This document shows positions 545 through 16,879 of a DNA stretch of 64,000 bases, one piece after another (position 1 is the stretch's first letter; each line of letters opens with the position of its first letter). The notes beneath the pieces were generated by a model, which saw only the letters and a list, made by a program, of their open reading frames with translations, was not told where the DNA came from and did not search any database. Source of the stretch: Escherichia coli (GTDB lineage: Bacteria > Pseudomonadota > Gammaproteobacteria > Enterobacterales > Enterobacteriaceae). The translations under genes were made by a program, and so were the position numbers. The stretch lies in assembly GCF_003018255.1 (NCBI RefSeq), contig NZ_CP027440.1; one strand, 5' to 3'.

Positions 545-2638
545 ATGAAAGCTACAGAAGCCCGCCTACTCGATTTTTTAAAACGTTCGCAGCAGTTTGT
601 TATTCCCATTTATCAACGGACTTATTCATGGACAGAACAACAATGTCGGCAACTTTGGGACGACATCATTCGTGCCGGAAAGCGTGACGATATATCAGCG
701 CATTTTATCGGTTCGGTTGTTTATATAGAGCAGGGATTGTATCAGGTTTCTGGTATTTCTCCGTTGCTGGTCATTGATGGTCAACAGCGGCTGACGACCG
801 CAATGTTGCTGATTGAGGCTTTATCACGCCATCTTGGCGAAGACGAAGTTTTTGATGGCTTTTCAGCAATGAAATTGCGTAATTATTATTTACTCAATCC
901 TTATGAGTCCGGCGAGAAAGGATTTAAATTACTGCTGACCGAGACTGATAAAGACAGTTTGCTGGCGTTAATAAAACAAAGACCAATGCCAGAAAACTAT
1001 TCCCATCGAATAATGGAAAACTTTACTTTCTTTGATGAACAAATTGCCAAACTCGGTGATGACTTGATCCCCTTATGTCGTGGGTTAGCAAAGTTATTAA
1101 TTGTCGATGTGGCGCTTAATCGTGGTCAGGATAATCCGCAACTGATTTTTGAAAGTATGAACTCCACCGGTAAGGCGTTAAGTCAGGCCGATCTGGTGCG
1201 CAATTTTATTCTGATGGGCCTCGAACCAGAGCATCAAACCCGGTTGTATGAAGATCACTGGCGTCCAATGGAAGTCGCTTTTGGTCAGCAAGGTTACAGC
1301 GAATATTTTGACAGCTTTATGCGTCATTATCTGACGGTAAAAACGGGGGAGATCCCTCGGACAGATGAAGTCTATGAGGCATTTAAACTCCATGCCCGCA
1401 GCCAGAGTGTTGCTGAAAAAGGCGTAGATCGGCTGGTTGAAGATATTCACATCTACGCGGAGTATTACTGTGCAATGGCATTGGGAAAAGAAAGTGACAA
1501 ATCGCTTGCTACGGCTTTTCAGGATTTGCGCGAGTTAAAGGTCGATGTGGCATATCCTTTCTTACTGGCGCTTTATCATGACTATAAAAATGGCGATTTG
1601 CCTCACGAAGATTTCCTGAGCATAATTCGTTTAATTGAATCTTATGTTTTCCGCCGTGCAGTATGTGCGATTCCGACGAATTCTCTTAACAAGACGTTTG
1701 CCACTTTTTATAAAGTCATTAATAAAGAAAAATATCTGGAAAGTATTCAGGTACATTTTCTGAATCTGCCTTCATATCGTCGTTTCCCCAACGATGATGA
1801 ATTTAAACGGGAATTAAAAGTTCGCGATCTCTATAACTTCCGTAGTCGCAGCTACTGGTTACGACGACTGGAAAACGATAAACGCAGAGAGCGCGTGGAA
1901 GAGTTTACGATTGAGCATATTATGCCGCAGAACGAAAATCTGTCGGCTAAATGGCGCGAAGAGTTGGGAAGCGACTGGCAGCGTGTGCATAAAGAATTGT
2001 TACATACGTTGGGGAATCTCACTTTAACGCGCTATAACTCCCGCTACAGTGACAGACCTTTCGCGGAAAAACGCGATATTGAAGACGGCTTTAAGCATAG
2101 CCCGCTTTATTTGAATATCGGTCTTGGACAGTGCGAAAAATGGGATGAAGCCGCCATTCACGCCCGAGCCGATCGTCTGGCCGATCTTGCGGTTCAGGTT
2201 TGGCAAGCGCCTGCTCTTCCTGAAGAGGTTTTAGCTGTTTATCGGGCGCAGCCGGAGAACAAAACCAGTTACAGCCTGAGTGATTATCCTTTTCTTGCTG
2301 ATGGTTCGCATAGCCGGGTGTTATTTGATCATCTTCGCGATGAAGTTATGCGCCTGGACGCAGGGATCACGCAGGAAGTATTGAAGCTCTATATTGCGTT
2401 TAAAGCTGAAACGAATTTTGTTGATGTTGTGCCGCAAAAAAGCCGACTGCGATTGTCGCTTAATATGCAGTTTCATGAACTGGTCGATCCGAAAGGTATT
2501 GCCAAAGATGTGACAAATGTTGGGCGATGGGGCAATGGCGATGTGGAAATTGGTTTCAGTGACCTCGCACAACTTCCTTACATTATGGGATTAATTCGTC
2601 AGGCATTTGAAAAACAGATGGAGAACGCGTTGGTATAA
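545..2638 (+). CDS. DUF262 (ParB-like NTPase) plus DUF1524 (His-Me finger) protein, a GmrSD-family type IV restriction enzyme candidate with an extra C-terminal domain
   Basis: 697 aa ORF. The N-terminal part has the motifs IPIYQRTYSW and VIDGQQRLTT, typical of DUF262. The central part has EHIMPQN ... GNLTLTRYNSRYSDRPF, typical of the DUF1524 HNH-like nuclease. It sits where K-12 has yjiT/yjiV/mcrBC (memory). Confidence 0.8.
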   Translation: MKATEARLLDFLKRSQQFVIPIYQRTYSWTEQQCRQLWDDIIRAGKRDDISAHFIGSVVYIEQGLYQVSGISPLLVIDGQQRLTTAMLLIEALSRHLGEDEVFDGFSAMKLRNYYLLNPYESGEKGFKLLLTETDKDSLLALIKQRPMPENYSHRIMENFTFFDEQIAKLGDDLIPLCRGLAKLLIVDVALNRGQDNPQLIFESMNSTGKALSQADLVRNFILMGLEPEHQTRLYEDHWRPMEVAFGQQGYSEYFDSFMRHYLTVKTGEIPRTDEVYEAFKLHARSQSVAEKGVDRLVEDIHIYAEYYCAMALGKESDKSLATAFQDLRELKVDVAYPFLLALYHDYKNGDLPHEDFLSIIRLIESYVFRRAVCAIPTNSLNKTFATFYKVINKEKYLESIQVHFLNLPSYRRFPNDDEFKRELKVRDLYNFRSRSYWLRRLENDKRRERVEEFTIEHIMPQNENLSAKWREELGSDWQRVHKELLHTLGNLTLTRYNSRYSDRPFAEKRDIEDGFKHSPLYLNIGLGQCEKWDEAAIHARADRLADLAVQVWQAPALPEEVLAVYRAQPENKTSYSLSDYPFLADGSHSRVLFDHLRDEVMRLDAGITQEVLKLYIAFKAETNFVDVVPQKSRLRLSLNMQFHELVDPKGIAKDVTNVGRWGNGDVEIGFSDLAQLPYIMGLIRQAFEKQMENALV

Positions 2639-2684: not shown

Positions 2685-3026
2685 TCAGGCGACTTTCTGT
2701 TTACCCGCAATCACCCCAATAAATTCCCGCACCTGCTTTTGTTTACGCGCCGACAGCTTGCACACCTGGCGCAGCGACTGCATTAGCTCGCTCTCTTCGG
2801 GGGCGGGTGGTTGGGCGGTGAGGACAATACAGCCTTCCATCACTTTGACAGCTATCGCCGTGCCGGTGGCAAAACCGGCGGCTTCCAGCCACTGACCTTT
2901 CAGGGTGATGGCGGGAATACGGCTGTAATCCGGGTAGCGACTCGCATAACTCACGGTTAATTGACGGTTATTTGCCGGGGAGACTTCTGCTTCGAACGGT
3001 TGTGCAATAGAATGCGTGTCAGTCAT
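2685..3026 (-). CDS. symE: SOS-induced toxin-like protein SymE (AbrB/SpoVT fold)
   Basis: From ATG at 3026 the translation is [52 protein letters not shown]..., 113 aa, matching K-12 SymE from memory. The longer track ORF (to 3083) is probably an upstream extension. Confidence 0.9.
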
Positions 3027-3097
3027 AACTGCTATTCCTTGAAAATAGTGATTGTGATGAGCGGTGCGGGTGTGTTGGCGCACATCCGCACCGCGCT
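3021..3097 (+). ncRNA. symR: SymR antisense sRNA (type I antitoxin-like), placed by analogy
   Basis: In K-12, SymR is a 77-nt RNA antisense to the symE start and 5' UTR, beginning a few nt inside the CDS (memory). A long hairpin, GCGGTGCGG (3061-3069) with CCGCACCGC (3086-3094), ends at the predicted 3' end. Confidence 0.45.
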
Positions 3098-3101
3098 AAA
3101 T

Positions 3102-3121
3102 ACCTGGATATATCATCAGTA
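3102..3121. promoter_or_regulatory. LexA (SOS) box upstream of symE
   Basis: The sequence acCTGgatatatcatCAGta has CTG-N10-CAG with an AT-rich core and lies about 80 bp upstream of the symE start. symE is known to be LexA-regulated. Confidence 0.65.
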
Positions 3122-3246
3122 AATACAGGGAAAGTCCAGCTAAAAATTAATGAAAATAAGATAGAAGTTAGCGTGAAATATAATTTTTGGTGATGTGAAT
3201 AAAGCGGCTATTGAGCCGCTTTATTGGTTTTATGAGGGCGAGAAAA

Positions 3247-4983
3247 TTAGTTTATCGCCGCGTTAGTCAGTGCGTCTGCAAGGTGCAGTTGGGTTTGTTG
3301 GGCGGTTTTTATACGAGTTTTAAGCTTATCGCATAGTTCATGAAGTAAACCTACTTGTGAAAATATTCTATATTGTTCAGTTAATGGTGGGCATGGGAAT
3401 GAATACAACATTACACTATTTGCTGATAGGTTGGGTTGTGCTGAGCCATTATCAAAGCGGTAAATCTGTGAGCGCCCAAATGGACTGGTTAAATAATTAT
3501 AAATATACCCTCCCATTTCTGTGATAAATGGTCTAATGATCATTAGTGATGAGGCAATAGCTCCTGTTTCATAGGGGGTTACAAAGGCAGTTTTACCAAA
3601 AGTTGCTCCTCGTAGGCAATAAACCAAATCACCTTTTTGAATTTTCCCACTTCTTAATTCATTAAATTTTCCTTCGGTTATAAAATTCATTTCTGTAACC
3701 GTAAGTGTACCATTTTTTTCTATATGTCCAGTATTGATCCAAGGAATACCTTGAGAAACATACTCATTTTTATTGGGATAATTACTTCCACGATCGCCAT
3801 TTATAAACTCTGATGTTAAACCAAATTTACACCACTCCCACCCTTCCGGCAGTTCAAACGGTTTTTCCTCATTGCTAATTGGCGGTAGTGGTTTTTGTTT
3901 TTTTATTTTCCCTTCTTTCACCAGTTGAGCTTTTTCCTGCGCAATTCGTTTGAGCAGTTCAGAGGCGGGTTCGTCATTCGGATCCTGCGGCACAAGTTTA
4001 CCCATTACGGCCAGTTGAAGAATGGTCTGTTTTAACGCATCCACGCTGGCTTCGGTGGTAAATAGGGTGTCGAAATGCTCGCTAATACGCGCCCAGTTTT
4101 CAGCCAGTTCCTCGGCGTTTTGGCTGTCTGTAAGCGTTCCCAACAGGGTTTCAACCAGTTGCTGATGTGCGTCCAGACTGGTCAGGGATTGCTGTTCCAG
4201 TTGGTCGCAGAGAACTGTAAGTTCTCTGATTTTTCTGACAATTTGTTGTTGTTCATTTATAGGCGGTAAAGCGATTATCTGTTGTTCCATTTTTTCTTTA
4301 GTCATATGGAGCATTGCAATACCGTTACCTTGCGATTTTATTTTATCTGTAATGGATAAAAGAAAATCATGTATAAAATATTTGTTTGAGTACTCTTCTG
4401 CAAATAAATTTAATTTCCATATATGGTAGTGATAAATTACTTTTTCTCCTGTCCAAATGAATGGCCCAAAAGATGCGGACCAAGCGTATATTAAATCACC
4501 ATTATTTATATATTTGTTTTCGTCTAATTGGAGGTCAGAGTAATACCACTCATTTGATGTGAATAGATTACCAACACGCAGCAAAGGAGTGCCTGTTTGA
4601 AGCATTTCATGTTTTTTATATGCTCGACCGTTAATAACCTCCATGAGATCTGCAACCCGCACCCACTCCCATCCCTCCGGCAATTCAAACGGCTTCTCTT
4701 CCTCGCTAATTCCTGGCAGTGGTTTTTGCTTTTTAATTTTACCTTGCTTCACCAGCTCTGCTTTTTCCGCAGCAATACGCTTCAGCAGCTCCGACGCCGG
4801 TTCATCATTCGGATCCTGCGGCACCAGTTTACCGCGCACCGCCAGTTCCAGAATCAGCTCACGCAATTTCTTAATGCCATACAAATCAATTTTACCGGAA
4901 CTGCCGCGCCCGGCGGTGGAACGGGTTTGCAACGCCGAGGTCCAGGTTTCCATATGATCAACGATCAGCTTTTCCACACTCAT
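3247..4983 (-). CDS. hsdS: Type I restriction-modification specificity subunit HsdS (578 aa, two TRDs)
   Basis: Two variable AT-rich target-recognition regions alternate with two near-identical conserved blocks (LAV.GKLVPQDPNDEPASELLKRIA.EKA.LVK.GKIKKQKPLP.IS.EEKPFELPEGWEW). The start ATG overlaps the hsdM stop by 1 nt (TGATG at 4981-4985). Confidence 0.92.
   Translation of the reverse strand: MSVEKLIVDHMETWTSALQTRSTAGRGSSGKIDLYGIKKLRELILELAVRGKLVPQDPNDEPASELLKRIAAEKAELVKQGKIKKQKPLPGISEEEKPFELPEGWEWVRVADLMEVINGRAYKKHEMLQTGTPLLRVGNLFTSNEWYYSDLQLDENKYINNGDLIYAWSASFGPFIWTGEKVIYHYHIWKLNLFAEEYSNKYFIHDFLLSITDKIKSQGNGIAMLHMTKEKMEQQIIALPPINEQQQIVRKIRELTVLCDQLEQQSLTSLDAHQQLVETLLGTLTDSQNAEELAENWARISEHFDTLFTTEASVDALKQTILQLAVMGKLVPQDPNDEPASELLKRIAQEKAQLVKEGKIKKQKPLPPISNEEKPFELPEGWEWCKFGLTSEFINGDRGSNYPNKNEYVSQGIPWINTGHIEKNGTLTVTEMNFITEGKFNELRSGKIQKGDLVYCLRGATFGKTAFVTPYETGAIASSLMIIRPFITEMGGYIYNYLTSPFGRSQIYRFDNGSAQPNLSANSVMLYSFPCPPLTEQYRIFSQVGLLHELCDKLKTRIKTAQQTQLHLADALTNAAIN
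3835..4016. repeat. hsdS internal direct repeat, copy 1 (conserved-region DNA)
   Basis: An imperfect direct repeat of about 180 bp matching 4664-4848, for example ...ttcggatcctgcggcac.agtttacc... . It encodes the duplicated HsdS conserved region. Confidence 0.8.
4664..4848. repeat. hsdS internal direct repeat, copy 2
   Basis: Partner of 3835-4016, offset by about 830 bp. Confidence 0.8.
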
Positions 4984-6452
4984 CAGTTAACCTCCTTGCC
5001 AGACAGCGCAGCGCCAAGAATATCGCGCAGTTGATTACGCAGCGTCTGGATCTCCGCCTGCTGTTTTGCATACTGCGCTAACAGTTCGTCCGGGTCATGG
5101 CTGACGGTTTCCGCCTGATGTGGGTTTTTAATATCCAGATTGAAGTTACGCGCAATCACGTCATCAATGCTGACTTTCCACGCTTGCTCATTCTCGATGC
5201 GGCTGGCAAAACCATCGGCCTCGTTACCCCACCAGTCAATCTCCGCCTGAAACTCTTCGAACTTCATCGGCTTGGTTTTACTGTAATTTTTCACGCCCGC
5301 CGGATACGGATGCTCATAGAACCAAATCTCTTTGGTTGGCTGACCTTTGGTAAAAAACAACAGGTTGGTTTTAATGCCGGTATAGGGGTTAAACACACCA
5401 TTCGGTAAACGCACGATGGTATGCAGATTGCACTCTTCGGTAAGCAGCTTTTTGATTTTGGTTTTAACGCCTTCGCCAAATAGCGTGCCATCCGGCAATA
5501 CCACCGCCGCGCGACCGTTTTTCGCCAGTACTTCCACAATCAGTTGCAGAAACAGATCCGCTGTTTCGCGGGTTTGCATCTCTGCCGGAAAGTTCTTCTC
5601 AATACCGTCTTCTTCCGTGCCACCAAACGGCGGGTTGGTAACAATGACATCCAGTTGCTCATCCCAGGAGGAAAGCGGTTTGTTCAGGGTGTTGTCGTGA
5701 CGAATTTGTACAGGCACTTCAATGCCGTGCAGCAGCATATTGGTGGTCGCCAGCAGGTGCGGAAGCTGTTTTTTCTCGACACCGTGGATCTGTTGTTGCA
5801 GCGTCTGATGATCGGCGACGCTCTTCACGTATTTGTTCTTTACATGATCGAACGCGCAGGCAAGAAAACCGCCCGTACCGCAGGCCGGGTCCATAATGGA
5901 TTCGCCGAGTTTCGGATCAACGCGATCCACCATAAAGCGAGTGACGGCGCGTGGCGTATAGAATTCGCCAGCATTGCCCGCAGATTGCAGATCTTTAAGG
6001 ATCTGTTCGTAAATATCACCAAACAGATGGCGTTCGCTGGCGCTGGTAAAGTCAATTTCGTTCAGCTTGTTGATCACCTGGCGCAGTAGCGTACCGTTTT
6101 TCATATAGTTATAGGCATCGCTGAACGCCTGCTTCACCACGTAGCCGCGTGGGTTTTTATCGATAGGCGCAGTGAGGTTTTTCAACGCCGGGAACAGATC
6201 ATCATTAACGAATTCCAGCAGGGAATCACCGGTAATGCCCTGAGCGTTTGCGGCCCAACTGCGCCATAAATAACGCTGTGGGATCGGATATTGATAGTTA
6301 TCCTGCTCCAGTTCCAGCGCCTCTTCCTGGGCATCGAAGATTTTCAAAAACAGCAGCCAGGAGAGCTGACCGAGACGCTGCGCATCGCCATCCACACCGG
6401 CATCTTTGCGCATAATATCTTGTAATGATTTGATTACTGAACTGATAGACAT
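4983..6452 (-). CDS. hsdM: Type I R-M N6-adenine DNA methyltransferase HsdM
   Basis: Contains the AdoMet motif I DPACGTGGFL and the catalytic motif IV NPPFGG. The N-terminus MSISSVIKSLQDIMRKDAGVDGDAQRLGQLSWLLFLK is typical of HsdM. I placed the start at ATG 6452 (alternative 6464), because the track start at 6488 lies inside a terminator hairpin. Confidence 0.92.
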   Translation of the reverse strand: MSISSVIKSLQDIMRKDAGVDGDAQRLGQLSWLLFLKIFDAQEEALELEQDNYQYPIPQRYLWRSWAANAQGITGDSLLEFVNDDLFPALKNLTAPIDKNPRGYVVKQAFSDAYNYMKNGTLLRQVINKLNEIDFTSASERHLFGDIYEQILKDLQSAGNAGEFYTPRAVTRFMVDRVDPKLGESIMDPACGTGGFLACAFDHVKNKYVKSVADHQTLQQQIHGVEKKQLPHLLATTNMLLHGIEVPVQIRHDNTLNKPLSSWDEQLDVIVTNPPFGGTEEDGIEKNFPAEMQTRETADLFLQLIVEVLAKNGRAAVVLPDGTLFGEGVKTKIKKLLTEECNLHTIVRLPNGVFNPYTGIKTNLLFFTKGQPTKEIWFYEHPYPAGVKNYSKTKPMKFEEFQAEIDWWGNEADGFASRIENEQAWKVSIDDVIARNFNLDIKNPHQAETVSHDPDELLAQYAKQQAEIQTLRNQLRDILGAALSGKEVN

Positions 6453-6473
6453 GTTGTATTCCATGAAAAACAA

Positions 6474-6503
6474 GGCCTTCTGCAACATGATGGTTGCAGA
6501 AGG
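6474..6503 (-). terminator. Perfect 12-bp-stem hairpin plus T-tract between hsdR and hsdM
   Basis: GCCTTCTGCAAC (6474-6485) pairs with GTTGCAGAAGGC (6492-6503) across the loop ATGATG. On the minus strand it is followed by TTGTTTTTC. Confidence 0.6.
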
Positions 6504-6518
6504 CGCAAAAGAGAGTTG

Positions 6519-8951
6519 TTAAGCAGAGCGGGGCGGTAATTGGTAGATTTCGTTTTCCAGCTCGCTGAGCGCCTGATTATACCCGTTACGGTCGCCAAAT
6601 CCGGTTTTAATAATCTCCGGTAAGGTGCCCATGCTGTCGAATGGTTTAAGTTTCAGCACCTGAATACTTTCGATCTCCTGTACGCCCGCATCGGCGTATT
6701 TATCCAGCAGATTATCGAGCACGGCTTGCGCTGCTTCAGAGTATTTTGTGAAGTAGTTCCGCTTGCGCACGTTCTCGGCGCGCTCTTTGCGGGTTAACGG
6801 CGGCTGACCATACACTACGTGGCAAAGCATGTCGAACGGGTCGAGATCTTTACCGACTTCTTCTGCCAGTACTTCCCAGATGATCCCCTGTTGTTCCAGC
6901 TCGTGAATGATCGCTTCTTTGCGATCGGCGTCCTGCCACTTGCGGGTAAAGTCATCCAGCGAGGCATATTCTTTGAGCAGTGTTTTGCGGGTGTAATCTT
7001 TAAAAGATTCGGTAACCAGTTTACCGTCGGCATCGTAATACTGAACACGCTGCGCAATAACGCCCACCGCTACACCGTTGACGTGAAACTTGCGGATTTT
7101 CTTCTCGTCTTCTTCCGGAAGTGGGCCGACATCATCGGTATCGGTAACCTGGTATGGTGGCGCAGGCGGTTCATCAACGCCTGTTACCTGTTCGTCGTCA
7201 TGTTCGCTGATTTCTTCGAGTTTCTCTTCAAAATCAGATTCTGGATCGGCGATATCCTCTGATGTGGTATCCATGACTTTTTCGGGAATGCCATCGAAAC
7301 GCTCATCGGCAAACAGTTCGGTGGCTTTTTTAAAGTCGAGGATGGTAAACCAGAGTTTGCCGTAACGTTCGTCGATGCGTGTACCACGACCGATAATTTG
7401 CTTGAATTTGGTCATCGACTGGATGTTCTGGTCCAGTACTACCAGTTTGCAGGTTTTAGCATCCACACCAGTGGTCATCAGCTCTGAAGTGGTCGCGATA
7501 ACCGGGTACGCTTTTTTCGGGTTGATGAAGTTATCCAACTGAGCTTTGCCAATTTCATCATCGCCGGTGATTTTCATGACGTATTTGTCGTTCTTTTTCA
7601 CCTGCTCCGGGTTGAGATTCACCAGGGCGCGGCGCATACGTTCTGCATGATCGATGTCGTTACAGAAGACGATGGTTTTATCCATCGGGTTGGTGCGCTT
7701 GAGGTAGTCGGTAATGGTTCTGGCAACCAGTTCTGTCCGTTCGTCGATTACCATCGTGCGATCGAAATCTTTCTGGTTATAGATACGATCGTCGATCACT
7801 TCGCCGTTTAAGTCAGTTTGCCCTTTGGTTGGGCGCCAGCCTTGCAGATCAACATCAATATCAACACGGACAACTTTATAAGGGGCGAGGAAGCCGTCTT
7901 CGATCCCTTCTTTTAGCGAGTAGACGTAAACCGGATCGCCGAAGTAATCCGTGCTGGAGACTTCATGCGTCTCTTTTGGCGTGGCGGTTAAGCCAATTTG
8001 GGTGGCGGAACTGAAATAATCAAGGATCTCTCGCCAGGCGCTGTCTTCGGATGCGCTGCCGCGATGGCATTCGTCGATCACGATCAGATCGAAGAAATCT
8101 GGTGCGACTTGTTTAAACGCTTTTTGGTCTTCCTCCGGGCCAGTTATAGCCTGATAGAGCGCGAGGTGAATTTCATAAGCGGGATCAATGGTGCGTCCGC
8201 TGACTTTGGTCATTGCCGTACCAAATGGCTGGAAATCATTATTTTTGGTTTGGTCGACCAGAATGTTGCGATCGGCAAGGAACAAAATGCGTTTTTTATT
8301 TTTTGATTTCCACAGGCGCCAGATGATCTGGAATGCGGTATAGGTTTTCCCTGTTCCGGTCGCCATGACCAGCAGAACGCGGTTTTGCCCGTTGGAGACG
8401 GCTTCAATGGTTTTGTTGATTGCCTGAAGCTGGTAATAACGAGGCGATTTGCCGCTGCCATCGTCGTAATAGTCCTGAGTAATCACCGGAAGCTGAGCTT
8501 GTGTGTATCCTTTCCAGAGGCAGAATTTTTGCCAGAGTTCAGCGGGGGAGGGGAAGTCATCCAGCGTTATTTGCTTTTCAAGGCATTCACCTTCAGCTGC
8601 GGTGGCATCGCGGAAGATAAAGCCATCACCGTTGGTGGCAAAAACAAAAGGAACGTCCAGCAGGCGCGCATATTCAATGCCCTGTTGCATCCCTTTGCCA
8701 ATTTCATGTTTGTTGGCTTTTGCTTCAATCACGGCTAAGGGAATGCCTGGTTTGTGATACAGCACGATGTCAGCAGATTTTACCGTTCTGCGTGCCGCAA
8801 CTTTACCACGTACGATGACTTTACCGTTCCGGAGTTTGACCTCCTGTCTGATTTGCGTTGTGTTGTCCCAGCCTGCATTGAGAATGGCTGGCATAACGCA
8901 TTTGGTAATGATGTCTGCTTCCGTCAGGTTACTTAGGTTCAGTTCCGCCAT
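6519..8951 (-). CDS. hsdR: Type I R-M restriction/translocase subunit HsdR (810 aa)
   Basis: The N-terminus has a PD-(D/E)xK-like region (ADIVLY ... VIEAKA). The helicase region has motif I MATGTGKT and motif II VIDECHR. The C-terminal region resembles the EcoEI_R_C domain of type IB enzymes (memory). Confidence 0.92.
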
Positions 8952-9091
8952 GGGGTGTTCTCATCTAAATGCGATGCGTAAATTCTACACAGAAAAATAG
9001 ATGAATTCATCTGTTCAAAGAGTATTATCAGCGTTAAGTCACTGTTTTAAAGGTATTCTTGAGTTTCATCAATAGCTGGATAAGGATTCAT

Positions 9092-10060
9092 ATGGAGAAT
9101 GTTCGGTTCTTGCAAGGAGTGAAACAATATTTTTGTACTAAGGCATTAGATGTCATTCTGCTAATTTATCTACTCCTTGGTTTTATACTTCTCCCTTATA
9201 AATATCTGTGGAAAGATATTATTTTATCTCTGTACTTTGTTGGTATTCTTCTTTATGCATTAGTGGAAGAAAATCGCATTGCAGAATATATGGGGTATTT
9301 TGTTAAGTTCAGTAATAAAAACAGGTTGAATAGTTGTGCTGCCTGGTGTTCACTTATTGCATGGTTTATATTTTTGTTTTTTGTGCTTTCAATTAATATT
9401 TTTCCAGTCAGTGCCTCTGTATATATTTTTAGTGCTTTTTCATTATTTGTTTTTCTGGGGGGTATTTTTATTATATTAGAGTTAGAGTTTAAAGAAAATA
9501 AAAAATTAATGATTATTAGGTCTGTGACTATAGCAGTCATGCCAATTATATATTTATTCACAAGTAGTTATGCTTCCAGTTTATTTTTAAGTTTGAGTAA
9601 TCTAAACATTACGCTAACTCCATGGGTTGAGTATTTCTGGAAAGGGATGGTTTTTATGTTGCTTTTCTTCATGTTAATGCAACTTATTATCTATTTTGCT
9701 TTTTTAACTCTGGGGACTAAATTAAGTGTGTATAGGTTGTTTATACTTGCCGGAGCATTTGTAGTATCTACTTTTTTAGTGGCTTTTGCTTTAAAAAATG
9801 TAGAAGGTATTTCGTACTACGTTTTAAAAAGCACCATAGATTTTGAATGGCGTAATCAGATTAAATGTGGCCAGTTGAATATTTCACGTTCGAATGAAAA
9901 GTATTTTGGGTTTAATACTGATAAATATACTGTATTTTATTCCGGCAGAGATGGTAAATGGGGCTTTGATGAGTTGAAATGTAAGAAAGGTTCTGACAGG
10001 AGAGATGCATATTCTATTGAGAATGTCTCAGAATATAACGTGCCTGGATGGCTGAAATAA
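9092..10060 (+). CDS. Orphan AT-rich polytopic membrane protein (about 7 TM) with a roughly 75-aa soluble C-terminal domain, function unknown
   Basis: ORF with AAGGA 5 nt upstream of ATG 9092; the track start at 9059 is TTG. It has seven hydrophobic stretches, then ...DFEWRNQIKCGQLNISRSNEKYFGFNTDKYTVFYSGRDGKWGFDELKCKKG... . Sampled lines are about 28-30% GC against about 50% in the flanks. It occupies the K-12 mrr position (memory). Confidence 0.7.
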   Translation: MENVRFLQGVKQYFCTKALDVILLIYLLLGFILLPYKYLWKDIILSLYFVGILLYALVEENRIAEYMGYFVKFSNKNRLNSCAAWCSLIAWFIFLFFVLSINIFPVSASVYIFSAFSLFVFLGGIFIILELEFKENKKLMIIRSVTIAVMPIIYLFTSSYASSLFLSLSNLNITLTPWVEYFWKGMVFMLLFFMLMQLIIYFAFLTLGTKLSVYRLFILAGAFVVSTFLVAFALKNVEGISYYVLKSTIDFEWRNQIKCGQLNISRSNEKYFGFNTDKYTVFYSGRDGKWGFDELKCKKGSDRRDAYSIENVSEYNVPGWLK

Positions 10061-10166
10061 GTCATCTTTATAAATTATATAGTAAAGGTTCTGGTCATAA
10101 ACGAGCATAGTTAAACATAAACGGGGCATACTCCACACACTTGATGTGCAGCAAGAAGTTGAACTC

Positions 10167-10292
10167 ATGGCTTTGGTTAATAAATCTGACGAAGATATTG
10201 ATTACAGCGACATTCCTGCGTCTGGTAGCGAAGCATGGGCTGACGCCACACGCGGCAATTTTTTGCCAGATCCAGGTATTCACGCGCAATAA
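10167..10292 (+). pseudogene. Truncated BrnA/DUF4415-like antitoxin fragment (41 codons)
   Basis: Hand translation gives MALVNKSDEDIDYSDIPASGSEAWADATRGNFLPDPGIHAQ followed by a stop. The motif DEDIDYSDIP...W..A.RG.F is as I remember DUF4415. There is no RHH C-terminus and no adjacent BrnT. Confidence 0.35.
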
Positions 10293-10293
10293 A

Positions 10294-10339
10294 ACTTAGC
10301 GGAGGGGAGCACGTCGTTCTGTTTCCCCCTCACTGCTAA
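10294..10339 (-). terminator. Probable yjiA terminator
   Basis: Imperfect inverted repeat CTTAGCGGAGGGG ... CCCCTCACTGCTAAG. On the minus strand it is followed by TTTTATT and lies just downstream of the yjiA stop. Confidence 0.5.
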
Positions 10340-10377
10340 GTGGGGCATTGGGTTGCTTTACACTCAACCTTTTACGA

Positions 10378-11334
10378 TTATTTCCTCAACCCCGCAAACG
10401 CCGCCCGAATCTTATCCTCCGGCAGCTGAATCCCGATAAACACCATTGTGCTATGCGGTGTTTCATCGCCCCACGGGCGGTCCCAGTCGGCGCTGTAGAG
10501 GCGTTGGACGCCCTGGAACAGCAGGCGGCTAGGTTCGCCGTCAATCCACAGCATCCCTTTGTAACGCAGTAGTTTATCCGCCGATTCCAGCAGCAGGTTT
10601 TCCATCACGCGGGAAACTTCGCTGATATCTACCGGGTAATCCAGTTCCACCACAATCGACGAAATATCGTTTTGTTTATCCGCGATAAAGTGGAAACGCG
10701 GTTTGGTGCTGACGACGTTTTCTTCCAGCATAAAACCGTTGGTGTTGAACAACAGGCCCAGGTCGATGTCACCGTGGGTGACGGTGTAGACCGGTGCGCG
10801 GGCGTTGATGCGCGCCAGGCGTTCACGCAGTTTCTCTACTTCGCCTGCGACGTCGGTTTTAGTCAGCAGAATACGGTCAGCGTAGCCCACCTGGGACTGG
10901 GCGATGGTGAACTGGTTCATCTGCTCATCGGCATGTACCGCATCCACCAGCGCAATCACGCCATCCAGCAGGTAACGCTGGCATAAAATCTCATGGGAGA
11001 AAAAGGTCTGAATAATCGGGCCGGGATCGGCCATGCCGGTGCATTCAATGACCAGACGGTCGAACTGAATATTGCCCTTGTCGAGATTGTCCAGCAGGTC
11101 GAGTAGCGCGTCCTCCAGCTCGTTGGAGCGCGAACAGCAGATGCAGCCGTTGGTCAGCGTTTTGATCTGCGTGGCGCGGTCGCCAATCAGTTGATCATCA
11201 ACGGAGACTTCGCCGAATTCGTTTTCAATCACGGCAATTTTGTAGCCGTGCTGTTCATTAAGAATATGGCGCAGCAGGGTGGTTTTGCCCGCGCCTAAAA
11301 AACCGGTGAGTAGGGTAACTGCAATCGGGTTCAT
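10378..11334 (-). CDS. yjiA: CobW/G3E-family metal-binding GTPase
   Basis: MNPIAVTLLTGFLGAGKTTLLRHIL (P-loop) and the CxCC motif GCICCS. 318 aa from ATG 11334, matching K-12 YjiA. Confidence 0.93.
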   Translation of the reverse strand: MNPIAVTLLTGFLGAGKTTLLRHILNEQHGYKIAVIENEFGEVSVDDQLIGDRATQIKTLTNGCICCSRSNELEDALLDLLDNLDKGNIQFDRLVIECTGMADPGPIIQTFFSHEILCQRYLLDGVIALVDAVHADEQMNQFTIAQSQVGYADRILLTKTDVAGEVEKLRERLARINARAPVYTVTHGDIDLGLLFNTNGFMLEENVVSTKPRFHFIADKQNDISSIVVELDYPVDISEVSRVMENLLLESADKLLRYKGMLWIDGEPSRLLFQGVQRLYSADWDRPWGDETPHSTMVFIGIQLPEDKIRAAFAGLRK

Positions 11335-14015: not shown

Positions 14016-15236
14016 TTAGAAGAGAGTGTCTAATTCTGCCAGTACGTTGTAGTCGTCATCAGTCAATAACAACGTTTTCCATTTGTCGAAGGTCAGGCAC
14101 GGATGCGATGTGCCAAACACCAGAATATCCCCCACTTGCACGTCGCTATTAGCTGACAGTTGCAACATGCAGTGCTGATCCATAATACCTGTACTGCGAA
14201 TCGCCTGTGGATCAAATGCCAGTGATTTGCCGTTGCGGTAGTGGGCGACTGGTTGCGGCAGTCCGGCGTCGAAGGCGCAATCACGCTTACCAAAATTTAC
14301 CACCGCACGATCAGCTTCCGGCACCGATTGCACCATGGCGACCAGTTCCAGCGCAGATGTGAGATCGCCTGCCAGATCGCAGGCCACAGGATCACGGGCA
14401 AGCAACTGTTGTTGTGCCGCGTCGTAGATCCCGGTGTCGTGAGTGATGTAGCAGCCAGGGCGAATAACAATGCGGCAGTTATCAGGCTTTTCTGCCGCCA
14501 GCCAGATATTGCACACCACGTCATACCAGACCGTGCCTGCTCCGGTGAGAATAAACTCGCCATCAACCAGACTTGCCATATCACAGGCCAGTTGTGCGGC
14601 ATCCCGCAGCAGAGCTTCTACCTGCGGTTGTGGATCGTCACCGTGTAAAACGCCTTCATATAACTCAAGCCCCCGCAGGCGTAACCCCGGTAATTGGGCT
14701 GCCTGTTTAGCCAGTGTCAGTGCGGCATCCCTTGAGCGGCAACCACAGCGCCCGCCGGGGACACCCAACTCAATCATCACGTTCAGTGTCTGTTGCTGAC
14801 TGGCAAAAAAGGCAGACAAAGCGCGGGCGTTCTCAATGCTGTCGATACAGCAGATAAAATCGACCGTCGGGTAATGTCGTTGCAACTGGGCAATCAACTG
14901 CATATTCGCCTTGCCGACCAGCTGGTTAACCATCAGCACTCGCTGAATACCGCTCGCCATTGCCGCACCAGCCTGCCATGCGCTACCGACACCTATTGCC
15001 CAGGCGCCTGCCGCCTGCTGCGCCTGAAAAATCCACGGCGTCATGGTGGTTTTACCGTGCGGTGCCAGCGAAACGCCGCGCGCGTCAGCATAACGCTGCA
15101 TCCACGTAATGTTGTTCTCCAGGGCCTGCTTTTTAATGATCGCGGCAGGTAAACAGACATCTTCGGCAAGGAGATTTGCGGGCATTTGCATCAGGGCAGA
15201 TTTATGGGGAACCAGAGGTTCTGAGTGGTATTTCAT
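14016..15236 (-). CDS. PLP-dependent D-serine/D-threonine dehydratase or aldolase-like enzyme (alanine-racemase-N fold, DSD1 family)
   Basis: 406 aa. It has a PHGKT lysine motif (SLAPHGKTTM) and a C-terminal HPC motif (GTSHPCLTFDKW), as in the D-Ser dehydratase-like family. I remember it as absent from K-12 at this locus. Confidence 0.75.
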   Translation of the reverse strand: MKYHSEPLVPHKSALMQMPANLLAEDVCLPAAIIKKQALENNITWMQRYADARGVSLAPHGKTTMTPWIFQAQQAAGAWAIGVGSAWQAGAAMASGIQRVLMVNQLVGKANMQLIAQLQRHYPTVDFICCIDSIENARALSAFFASQQQTLNVMIELGVPGGRCGCRSRDAALTLAKQAAQLPGLRLRGLELYEGVLHGDDPQPQVEALLRDAAQLACDMASLVDGEFILTGAGTVWYDVVCNIWLAAEKPDNCRIVIRPGCYITHDTGIYDAAQQQLLARDPVACDLAGDLTSALELVAMVQSVPEADRAVVNFGKRDCAFDAGLPQPVAHYRNGKSLAFDPQAIRSTGIMDQHCMLQLSANSDVQVGDILVFGTSHPCLTFDKWKTLLLTDDDYNVLAELDTLF

Positions 15237-15436
15237 AACATTTACCTTTTAAGTTTTTCACCGTATCGGATGTGAGTATCACTTGTAACTAAATGAAATA
15301 TAAATATTTAGTTTATTTATCTTATTATTTATGAATAAAAGTATCATAAAATCATCTGGGTTTTGCGTAGTTTTCCACTGTTTTTCGTCCTTGTAAATGG
15401 TTAACTTGTCACCATTGCAGAAATGGAGTGACGAAC

Positions 15437-16879
15437 ATGCAGGTTGACTGGTTAATCAAAAATGTGACCGTTATCGACGGTAGCGGCGGCCCTGAATTTC
15501 GCGGTGACGTGGCAATAACAGGTGATCGGATTGTCGATATTGCCCCTGCGCTTAACGTTACGGCGCAGCAGGTCATTGACGGGGAAGGGCGGGTGCTGGC
15601 ACCCGGGTTTATCGACGTTCATACCCATGACGATATCAACGTTATTCGCATCCCGGAATATCTGCCAAAGATCAGCCAGGGGATCACTACGGTGATTGTC
15701 GGTAACTGCGGGATTAGTGCGGCGTCGGCGAAAATGAAAGGTGAAGTTCCTGACCCGATGAATCTGTTGGGGGAAGCAGAGCACTTTATTTATCCTACCG
15801 TTGAAAGCTATGCCCAGGCAGTGGAAGCAGCCAGGCCGTCACTGAACGTTGGCACGCTGATTGGTCATACGGCGCTGCGTAATAACCATATGGACGACCT
15901 GTTTCGCCCGGCGACGGTGGATGAAATTGCCGCTATGCGTGCCGACTTACGTCTGGCGTTGAGTCAGGGGGCGCTGGGGTTAAGTTCCGGGCTGGCCTAT
16001 GCAACGGCATTTCAGGCGACTACCGAAGAAGTCATGGCGCTGGCGGAAGAATTAGCCGGTGAGAAGGGCGTTTATACCACCCATCTGCGTTCTGAATTTG
16101 AACCGATTCTCGATGCCCTGGATGAGGCGTTTCGTATTGGGCGTCATGGCAAAGTGCCTGTCGTGGTTTCCCACCATAAATGTGCCGGGGCGAAAAACTG
16201 GGGGCGGACAAAAGAAACGTTGGCCTTTTTTGACCAAATGCGTCAACACCAGGAAATTGGCTGCGATGTCTACCCTTACTCAGCCAGCTCTTCAACGCTG
16301 GATCTCAAACAAGTCACCGACGAATTCGATATTGTGATCACCTGGTCACAAACACATCCGCAGCAGGCCGGGAAAACACTGGCGCAAATCGCCATCGACT
16401 GGCAGATGAGTATGCTGGAGGCCGCGAAGCTGCTAATGCCTGCCGGGGCTATCTATTACAACATGGACGAGCGCGACGTCCGCCGAGTGTTGAGTTATCC
16501 GGTCAGTATGATTGGCTCTGACGGCCTGCCCAATGATCCCATGCCGCATCCACGTTTATGGGGCGCCTTCCCTCGCGTGCTGGGCCACTATTGCCGTGAT
16601 GAAGGCTTATTCCCACTGACCACGGCTATCCACAAAATGACCGGGCTTTCTGCCAGCCGTTTTCGCCTGCCCCAGCGTGGACTGGTGAAAGTCGGTTATT
16701 TTGCGGACCTGGTGTTGTTCGATCCACAAACCATTCGTGATGTTGCCAGCTTTTCTGATCCCAAACGCCCGGCAGATGGCATTGAGGCGGTGATGGTGAA
16801 CGGCGTTATGAGCTATGGTCCCGATAAACATATTACAGGCCGTGCGGGACGCTTCCTGCGCCGGCAGACCTCACATTAA
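15437..16879 (+). CDS. N-acyl-D-amino-acid deacylase (D-aminoacylase), amidohydrolase superfamily
   Basis: WLIKNVTVIDGSG ... PGFIDVHTHDD (HxH metal site). GGAG lies 8 nt upstream of ATG 15437; the track start at 15428 is GTG. Confidence 0.8.
   Translation: MQVDWLIKNVTVIDGSGGPEFRGDVAITGDRIVDIAPALNVTAQQVIDGEGRVLAPGFIDVHTHDDINVIRIPEYLPKISQGITTVIVGNCGISAASAKMKGEVPDPMNLLGEAEHFIYPTVESYAQAVEAARPSLNVGTLIGHTALRNNHMDDLFRPATVDEIAAMRADLRLALSQGALGLSSGLAYATAFQATTEEVMALAEELAGEKGVYTTHLRSEFEPILDALDEAFRIGRHGKVPVVVSHHKCAGAKNWGRTKETLAFFDQMRQHQEIGCDVYPYSASSSTLDLKQVTDEFDIVITWSQTHPQQAGKTLAQIAIDWQMSMLEAAKLLMPAGAIYYNMDERDVRRVLSYPVSMIGSDGLPNDPMPHPRLWGAFPRVLGHYCRDEGLFPLTTAIHKMTGLSASRFRLPQRGLVKVGYFADLVLFDPQTIRDVASFSDPKRPADGIEAVMVNGVMSYGPDKHITGRAGRFLRRQTSH

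Follow-up and report, generated by a model that had tools for sequence, protein, structure and literature searches.

At positions 9092..10060 (+) of the 64,000-nt stretch of Escherichia coli DNA analysed here (contig NZ_CP027440.1, hereafter the window) lies an intact open reading frame (ORF) of 322 codons with an ATG start, whose extent, stop codon included, is given by both the list of ORFs and RefSeq. It encodes an orphan membrane protein with seven predicted transmembrane (TM) helices, and we refer to it as the 7-TM gene. Here, we show using genome comparison, searches for relatives and substitution analysis that the 7-TM gene is a stand-alone, maintained and mobile single-gene cargo of AT-rich composition.

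RefSeq annotates the identical 969-nt coding sequence (CDS) in related strains, under the label 'hypothetical protein'. A Shine-Dalgarno sequence, AAGGA, read from the sequence at 9082..9086 (+), stands 5 nt before the ATG; the first-pass annotation of this DNA, made from the letters alone, had described a 322-aa ORF with a credible Shine-Dalgarno sequence, and the RefSeq CDS agrees with it. The orthologues in Klebsiella and Salmonella keep the ATG plus AAGG. The same annotation had called the gene AT-rich against its flanks and horizontally acquired, and both points hold: the GC content is 31.4% in the ORF (29% at third positions) against 51.0% in the window, the profile in 300-nt windows falls to a minimum of 28% inside the gene and regains about 50% at either end, the gene is AT-rich in each host (28–42% GC, with flanks of 39–60%), and its distribution is sporadic. 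From the start codon of hsdR to that of the 7-TM gene runs a divergent intergenic region of 140 nt (8952..9091), which presumably holds the promoters of both genes and which shows about 80% conservation, including long invariant blocks, among E. coli, Klebsiella and Salmonella.

A replaceable slot between hsdR and yjiA

The 7-TM gene is divergent from hsdR and convergent with yjiA. In comparison with O157:H7 and clone D i2, whose slot is of the GmrSD type, similarity stops at 8962, 11 nt past the hsdR start codon, and the junction probe ends at query position 511, which is window position 8962; in comparison with O157:H7, clone D i2 and K-12, similarity restarts exactly at 10378, the stop of yjiA. 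These shared breakpoints therefore delimit a replaceable cassette of the immigration control region (ICR) at 8963..10377, which contains the hsdR-proximal intergenic region, the 7-TM gene, a remnant of brnA and a yjiA-proximal spacer. K-12 carries mrr at this place, in the orientation of the 7-TM gene, and O157:H7, O104:H4 and clone D i2 carry a DUF262/HNH enzyme of the GmrSD type, so that the slot has at least three alternative occupants in E. coli: the 7-TM gene, Mrr and GmrSD, of which the last two are type IV restriction enzymes encoded by single genes. Genome comparison thus bears out the earlier placement of the gene in a defence region, back to back with a type I restriction-modification (R-M) system and where K-12 carries mrr.

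How closely is the 7-TM gene tied to the restriction system beside it? The junction probe finds type IB hsdR in 980 E. coli genomes, and the 7-TM gene adjoins it in 399 of these (41%); it is therefore no obligatory part of type IB restriction. The tie to the type IB hsd genes that the first-pass annotation had raised stands as far as linkage goes and falls as far as dependence goes.

The left border of the cassette is hsdR of type IB (EcoAI family; 6519..8951 (-)), identified by PADLOC (REase_I, 1704 bits) and by its RefSeq name. The right border is the GTPase gene yjiA (10378..11334 (-)), a conserved anchor according to genome comparison and RefSeq, and named as an ICR anchor in the literature (PMC12707154). 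Inside the cassette, the ORF at 10101..10292 (+), whose 63-aa version RefSeq names 'antitoxin' or 'hypothetical protein', is not a BrnA antitoxin proper, which is about 100 aa long, ends in a ribbon-helix-helix domain and follows brnT, but a remnant of its N-terminal part (brnA'). Compared with the 100-aa BrnA of Klebsiella and the 63-aa RefSeq 'antitoxin', its translation aligns to just the N-terminal ~60 residues of the Klebsiella protein; it has no ribbon-helix-helix domain, no brnT partner and no Pfam match, and its start codon in the window is ACG, mutated from ATG. The brnAT genes are among the toxin-antitoxin systems of the ICR (PMC12707154).

All other ICR genes of the window are known defence or toxin-antitoxin genes, namely those for SymE, HsdS, HsdM, HsdR and, on the yjiS side, an intact 697-aa enzyme of the GmrSD type (545-2638 (+); GmrSD_N, GmrSD_C and DUF5655). 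The two closest RefSeq records examined list the orthologue of this GmrSD as a pseudogene together with a fragment. The hsdR-proximal intergenic region swaps with the cassette, and the DNA in front of type IB hsdR, presumably its promoter, therefore differs between strains of the 7-TM type and of the GmrSD type. Beyond btsT (14016-16879 onward) the strains vary as well: the window and strain 2014C-3338 carry genes for an amino-acid deaminase, an N-acyl-D-amino-acid deacylase, RidA and a sodium:solute symporter, K-12 carries tsr and lgoT, and a strain of sequence type (ST) 95 carries a frameshifted tsr and a tripartite ATP-independent periplasmic (TRAP) transporter.

An Enterobacterales family and the selection on its genes

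A word-indexed search of 5.8 billion proteins returned 43 relatives, an exhaustive profile search of 1.84 billion cluster representatives 41 matches, about 16 of them full-length, and a scan of 185,579 species, with one genome each, 15 loci. By named source the family is found in Enterobacterales only: Escherichia, Salmonella, Klebsiella, Enterobacter, Kosakonia, Cedecea, Buttiauxella, Serratia, Pectobacterium, Lonsdalea, Rouxiella, Pantoea, Erwinia, Proteus, Providencia and Morganella. The exceptions look like contamination: they comprise one 'Bacillota' metagenome-assembled genome, whose copy shares 89% identity with the E. coli gene, and some stray labels among the cluster listings. Among plasmids there is a single match, in a 373-kb non-mobilizable E. 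coli record. Our alignments and profiles use 30 family members (about 30 diverged homologues), across which the reading frame is kept; from Providencia to Escherichia, both the frame and a 70-residue domain are retained at 24–44% overall identity.

The first-pass annotation had recognised no family in the protein, and the searches agree. Neither Pfam nor NCBIfam matches the 322-aa protein at E<=10, and the PADLOC check suggested at that stage leaves it unmatched as well, with 0 families hit at E<=10 among the 5027 profile hidden Markov models of PADLOC-DB v2.0.0; HsdR, HsdM, HsdS and GmrSD of the window, as positive controls, match PADLOC strongly. A Pfam scan of all 30 members gave just single-member noise, no PHROGs family was matched by more than 1/30 members (best E-value 0.008), a profile search against the sequences of the PDB reached a best E-value of 1.1, and Foldseek against viral structures found nothing at E<=0.001. 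A confident match to a housekeeping transporter or enzyme, which had been named beforehand as speaking against the original proposal, was not found; no housekeeping transporter family gives a sequence or fold match covering most of the protein, and none of the 30 members has a Pfam or NCBIfam match to acyltransferases (Acyl_transf_3/OafA), GT-C, Wzy/WaaL, MBOAT or flippases. We found no mention of the family's RefSeq protein accessions in the literature.

In Klebsiella and Salmonella (42% and 44% identity, respectively) the 7-TM gene is again divergent from type IB hsdR, beside flanking proteins that are far closer to those of the window (HsdR 92% and 81% identical, HsdM 97% and 91%). Here the intergenic region and the 3' end are alignable at the DNA level, which points to positional orthologues that probably diverged in place. 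Allelic replacement from an unrelated source was considered for the 42% identity between E. coli and Klebsiella and rejected, as the intergenic region and the 3' end are alignable and a ratio of nonsynonymous to synonymous substitution rates (dN/dS) of ~0.35 with saturated dS suffices.

Other hosts carry the gene in other surroundings. Enterobacter soli and E. roggenkampii have it inside the ICR (yjiN to yjiA) without an R-M system. In Pectobacterium, Serratia, Cedecea, Lonsdalea and isolate RIT693, lptG is followed by tRNA-Leu(CAA), a P4-type integrase and, 50 nt on, the 7-TM gene, and toxin-antitoxin modules together with TIR, OLD-type and Mrr-like genes lie downstream in these clade B loci. 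The order in Kosakonia is leuX, an integrase remnant, the 7-TM gene, Mrr, SymE, type I hsdSMR and Zorya; the leuX locus is 'hotspot 37', dedicated to defence according to Hochhauser et al., and the ICR is 'hotspot 36' (PMC10121019; PMC12707154). In Providencia and Proteus the 7-TM gene closes a CP4-like element (AlpA, YfjJ-like, GTPase, KlcA-type antirestriction, DUF932, IrmA) with SLATT, NACHT or TerB genes at its other end, and type IB hsdRMS or an HNH enzyme is often present in the variable DNA past the 7-TM gene. Throughout Morganellaceae the gene follows a member of the IrmA family (interleukin receptor mimic protein A; Providencia loci, 9465-9926). Finally, in Pantoea and Rouxiella it is a solitary AT-rich insertion amid housekeeping genes; in Pantoea coffeiphila, DUF6389 and Fic genes adjoin it. 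Known defence genes lie within 10 kb in roughly half of the independent contexts. No neighbour of the 7-TM gene is conserved across the contexts examined, and the gene is therefore a single-gene module.

Is the gene alive? It is carried by 443/5,426 complete E. coli genomes (~8%), among them lineages such as ST95 extraintestinal pathogenic E. coli and O26/O111 enterohaemorrhagic E. coli, and it is full-length in 409 of the 443 carriers (92%). The E. coli alleles fall in three groups, with ~97.6%, 93.4% and 92.2% nucleotide identity to the window. Pairwise dN/dS is 0.21–0.39 (about 0.35), with one near-identical pair at 0.78 on low counts, against 0.02–0.17 for hsdR and 0.01–0.07 for yjiA; selection is purifying, yet relaxed 5–10-fold relative to the neighbours. 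Region by region, on small counts, dN/dS is 0.5–0.7 in the TM helices, where the substitutions are simple hydrophobic swaps, 0.03–0.24 in the periplasmic loops and ~0.2–0.25 in the C-terminal domain. Overall positive selection was considered and rejected, as dN/dS stays below 1 everywhere save in one TM comparison with small counts.

The truncated copy examined, from E. coli SY3626, results from an IS1A-associated deletion equivalent to window ~3000-9620, which took hsdS, hsdM, hsdR and the 5' half of the 7-TM gene and left a 137-aa ORF from the 3' half; its breakpoint (query 529-969) recurs in several genomes. A decaying pseudogene or remnant, which had been named beforehand as an outcome that would speak against a function, is ruled out by the share of full-length copies, by dN/dS and by the insertion-sequence (IS1) origin of this truncation. 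No complete E. coli genome carries an identical cassette (8952-10377). The best match is strain 2014C-3338: its cassette is 97.9% identical and its 7-TM gene 98.2%, and its HsdS and HsdM are 100% identical to those of the window at the protein level.

Predicted architecture and topology

Kyte-Doolittle hydropathy gives seven hydrophobic segments followed by a hydrophilic C-terminal part of 86 residues (aa 237-322), and an AlphaFold model built from 30 sequences, with a mean local confidence (pLDDT) of 87, a global score (pTM) of 0.77 and agreement among all five models, places TM helices at aa 18-32, 39-58, 78-103, 106-133, 137-169, 177-210 and 213-235. The seven helices that had been read from the sequence are thus recovered by both methods, and the hydrophilic tail with two cysteines is confirmed. 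The predicted protein consists of a seven-TM bundle (aa 18-236; 9143..9799 (+)), a linker helix (aa 237-252; 9800..9847 (+)) that, in alignment and model, ends in the invariant E252-W253, and a C-terminal domain of six beta strands (aa 253-322; 9848..10057 (+)), supported by alignments and AlphaFold, with the strands modelled within aa 256-316 at a pLDDT of ~90.

Which side of the membrane does this domain face? Family-wide, lysine and arginine together number ~13.5 in the N-terminus and loops 2, 4 and 6, against ~1.9 in loops 1, 3 and 5. Under the positive-inside rule, this bias argues for an inner-membrane protein with its N-terminus inside and its C-terminus outside, and for a periplasmic C-terminal domain. 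The only invariant cysteines, each present in 30/30 aligned members, are C259 (TGT at 9866-9868, within NQIKCGQLN) and C297 (TGT at 9980-9982, within DELKCKKG), and the pair is consistent with a disulfide formed in the periplasm.

Conservation is highest in loop 5 and the C-terminal domain (mean majority frequency 0.64). Loop 5 (aa 161-181; 9572..9634 (+)), predicted to be periplasmic and devoid of lysine and arginine, has conserved S163, F165, S169, N170, P177 and E180; the C-terminal domain has the conserved motifs E252-W253, Y271-FGFNTDKYT-280 and W290-G-F292. The predicted cytoplasmic loops are poorly conserved. In the alignment the invariant positions are mostly aromatic, cysteine, proline or structural, and no histidine, aspartate or arginine is invariant across the family, nor is there a His/Asp catalytic set; such a make-up would suit binding better than catalysis. 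The E. coli O26:H11 allele examined carries F292V; position 292 is invariant in all 30 aligned members, and this allele may be altered or reduced in function.

Candidate functions and known systems

What could a protein of this kind do? Our favoured explanation, to which we give a probability of roughly 40%, is a stand-alone defence or exclusion protein of the inner membrane that blocks genome entry from the periplasmic side. The alternation with Mrr and GmrSD and the occurrence in two defence hotspots, the ICR and leuX, argue for an association with defence. The protein would act at the outer face of the inner membrane and not on cytoplasmic DNA, most likely by a non-enzymatic mechanism in which loop 5 and the periplasmic domain attach to a conserved component of the envelope, or to the conduit through which a phage or other mobile DNA crosses the inner membrane, so that genome entry would be blocked in the manner of P22 SieA, T4 Imm and HK97 gp15; the neighbouring type IB restriction system would not be needed. 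As the outward face is the most conserved part, the target would be a conserved host component or a feature of the conduit rather than a fast-evolving phage protein. A more specific proposal is somewhat more tentative still: the protein would be the founder of a new single-protein defence family particular to Enterobacterales, in which a periplasmic domain held by a disulfide keeps the DNA of phages or other foreign DNA from passing through the inner membrane, and it would form a third, non-nuclease alternative in the ICR with relatives at leuX.

Several observations weigh against this explanation. The proposed function rests on association and anatomy, and the copies in Pantoea, Rouxiella and Enterobacter have no defence gene nearby. 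With 322 aa and seven TM helices the protein is much larger than known exclusion proteins, and its conserved periplasmic face is also compatible with an enzyme or an immunity protein. The family is absent from 50,697 phage records, and a relative occurs on only 1 of 2.9 million viral contigs of IMG/VR, a Kosakonia-type leuX island beside a P4-like element; with this near-absence from phage genomes, the 7-TM gene is therefore not a prophage gene, unlike those of classical exclusion proteins. A distant structural relative may have been missed, as the fold search used only the whole protein as its query. Simple scans found neither a consensus sigma-70 promoter on the + strand upstream of the gene nor an intrinsic terminator for it, and acquired AT-rich genes are often silenced, so that the 7-TM gene may be poorly expressed.

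Among the alternatives, the one that survives best, though in our view still an unlikely one, is a hitch-hiker that has no function for the host, or a physiological role outside conflict such as stress or signalling, and is kept by linkage in mobile cassettes. The 7-TM gene is an orphan to which no function can be assigned, its dN/dS is 5–10 times that of its neighbours, it is a solitary insertion in several genera, and the simple scan found no consensus promoter. However, dN/dS is well under 1, the frame and the 70-residue domain have been kept from Providencia to Escherichia, 92% of the E. coli copies are intact, and the gene recurs in two defence hotspots.

Two further explanations seem to us about equally improbable. 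Possibly the seven-TM bundle is the latent pore or channel of an abortive-infection effector, which depolarises the inner membrane once the periplasmic domain senses envelope damage or phage entry, so that the cell dies before phage release. Membrane effectors are common among defence systems, the 7-TM protein, which stands alone, is embedded in the membrane and has a domain that could be a sensor, and the island contexts are the same as for our favoured explanation. Yet no separate sensor or antitoxin partner is conserved, the TM helices that would line the pore are the least constrained part (dN/dS 0.5–0.7, hydrophobic swaps), and SLATT, 2TM/4TM and other PADLOC effector models are unmatched. 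The second would be an envelope-modifying enzyme or flippase-like protein that alters lipopolysaccharide, enterobacterial common antigen or peptidoglycan on the periplasmic side and thereby affects the surface, possibly including phage receptors, like lysogenic-conversion genes. It would account for the conserved polar residues at the periplasmic interface (S163, S169, N170, E180, Q197, E252, K278 and E294), for the limitation of the family to Enterobacterales and for hosts that carry the gene among ordinary metabolic genes, and genes of the wzy/wzx/gtrC type are likewise AT-rich and divergent, as the 7-TM gene is. On the other hand, no acyltransferase, GT-C, Wzy/WaaL or flippase match appears in the 30 members, the invariant residues are mainly aromatic, cysteine and proline with no His/Asp/Arg set, and partner genes (gtrAB-like, sugar-pathway) are not linked.

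Slightly less probable again is an orphan immunity protein against an interbacterial toxin, such as a colicin or an effector of contact-dependent inhibition (CDI) or of a type VI secretion system (T6SS), that acts in the periplasm or inner membrane. A conserved periplasmic binding face with a predicted disulfide would suit toxin binding, and genes of polymorphic-toxin systems lie near some relatives: CdiI_5 and a Tlde1-domain protein in Serratia, Hcp, PAAR and DUF1240 near Providencia copies, and DUF6389 and Fic in Pantoea coffeiphila. These toxin-related genes, however, are apart from the 7-TM gene and differ by host, no toxin gene or remnant adjoins it in E. coli, Klebsiella, Salmonella, Pectobacterium or Pantoea, and the protein is far larger than typical immunity proteins. 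An accessory subunit of type IB restriction, tethering or regulating EcoAI-family HsdR at the membrane where DNA enters, would agree with the divergent layout and shared intergenic region kept in Escherichia, Salmonella and Klebsiella, with type IB hsdRMS a few kb away in several Providencia loci and with the type IB hsdR beside each full-length E. coli copy examined, but is very improbable given that 581/980 type IB E. coli genomes lack the 7-TM gene beside hsdR (three examined carry GmrSD), that many relatives have no R-M system nearby and that the cytoplasmic loops needed for contact with HsdR are poorly conserved.

No defence island has been known longer or studied better than the ICR. What it contains in 9,040 enterobacterial genomes is listed in a recent review (PMC12707154), in which we found no mention of the 7-TM gene. 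The 7-TM protein represents a new, uncharacterised family and would, if the functional inference holds, be a single-gene system of exclusion or defence at the membrane. If it is indeed a barrier to DNA entry, a slot thought to be reserved for type IV enzymes would also hold a membrane-level, non-nuclease module, which could explain some of the strain-specific phage resistance in clinically important lineages and would offer a new fold for the study of how phage genomes pass through the inner membrane.

How does the 7-TM protein compare with systems already described? It shares with Mrr and GmrSD the hsdR-yjiA slot and orientation, the single-gene format and a sporadic distribution. Those proteins are soluble nucleases (Mrr_cat or DUF262/HNH), whereas the 7-TM protein is a polytopic membrane protein with no nuclease or DNA-binding domain; Pfam at E<=10 detects no type IV enzyme domain in it, and the same library finds GmrSD_N and GmrSD_C in the GmrSD of the window (545-2638) and Mrr_cat in the Kosakonia neighbour. 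The kinship to Mrr and GmrSD is positional, not homologous. Like Zorya ZorAB, Kiwa KwaA, SLATT and 2TM/4TM proteins, the 7-TM protein is membrane-embedded and found in the same islands, with Zorya by the Kosakonia copy and SLATT in the Providencia element, but those proteins use cytoplasmic partners from the same operon and the 7-TM gene has no conserved partner and no PADLOC match.

That E. coli can mount a defence where a phage genome is injected is shown by SNIPE, a constitutively membrane-localised, membrane-bound nuclease that cleaves phage DNA at injection and is found in association with entry proteins of the host and tape-measure proteins of phages (PMC13190303). The 7-TM protein would share with SNIPE the concept of a defence placed at the inner-membrane site of genome entry. 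In contrast to SNIPE, it has no nuclease and no homology to that protein, and its conserved domain is predicted to face the periplasm, without access to cytoplasmic DNA.

T4 Imm and HK97 gp15 are single inner-membrane exclusion proteins that block the injection of phage DNA. SieA of P22, which mediates superinfection exclusion by interfering with the conduit of ejection proteins, has 162–164 aa, 3–4 TM helices and a conserved cytoplasmic motif, FxRYPxEAxxFNK; SieA-type proteins span about 160–200 aa, and the types are <30% identical (PMC10883804). On reading the 7-TM translation we did not see this motif, and the PHROGs search gave no similarity. The 7-TM protein is longer, at 322 aa with seven helices, and its conserved parts are predicted to be periplasmic; SieA is prophage-encoded with demonstrated exclusion, whereas the 7-TM family is nearly absent from phages and its role is predicted. 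Nonetheless, both are encoded by single stand-alone genes, carried as accessory cargo in very divergent sequence types, both are placed in the inner membrane, by prediction for the 7-TM protein, and the proposed site of action of the latter, at the inner membrane and periplasm during genome entry, is that of SieA. By analogy, the 7-TM protein would be nearest in mode to SieA, Imm and gp15, yet a member of none of these families.

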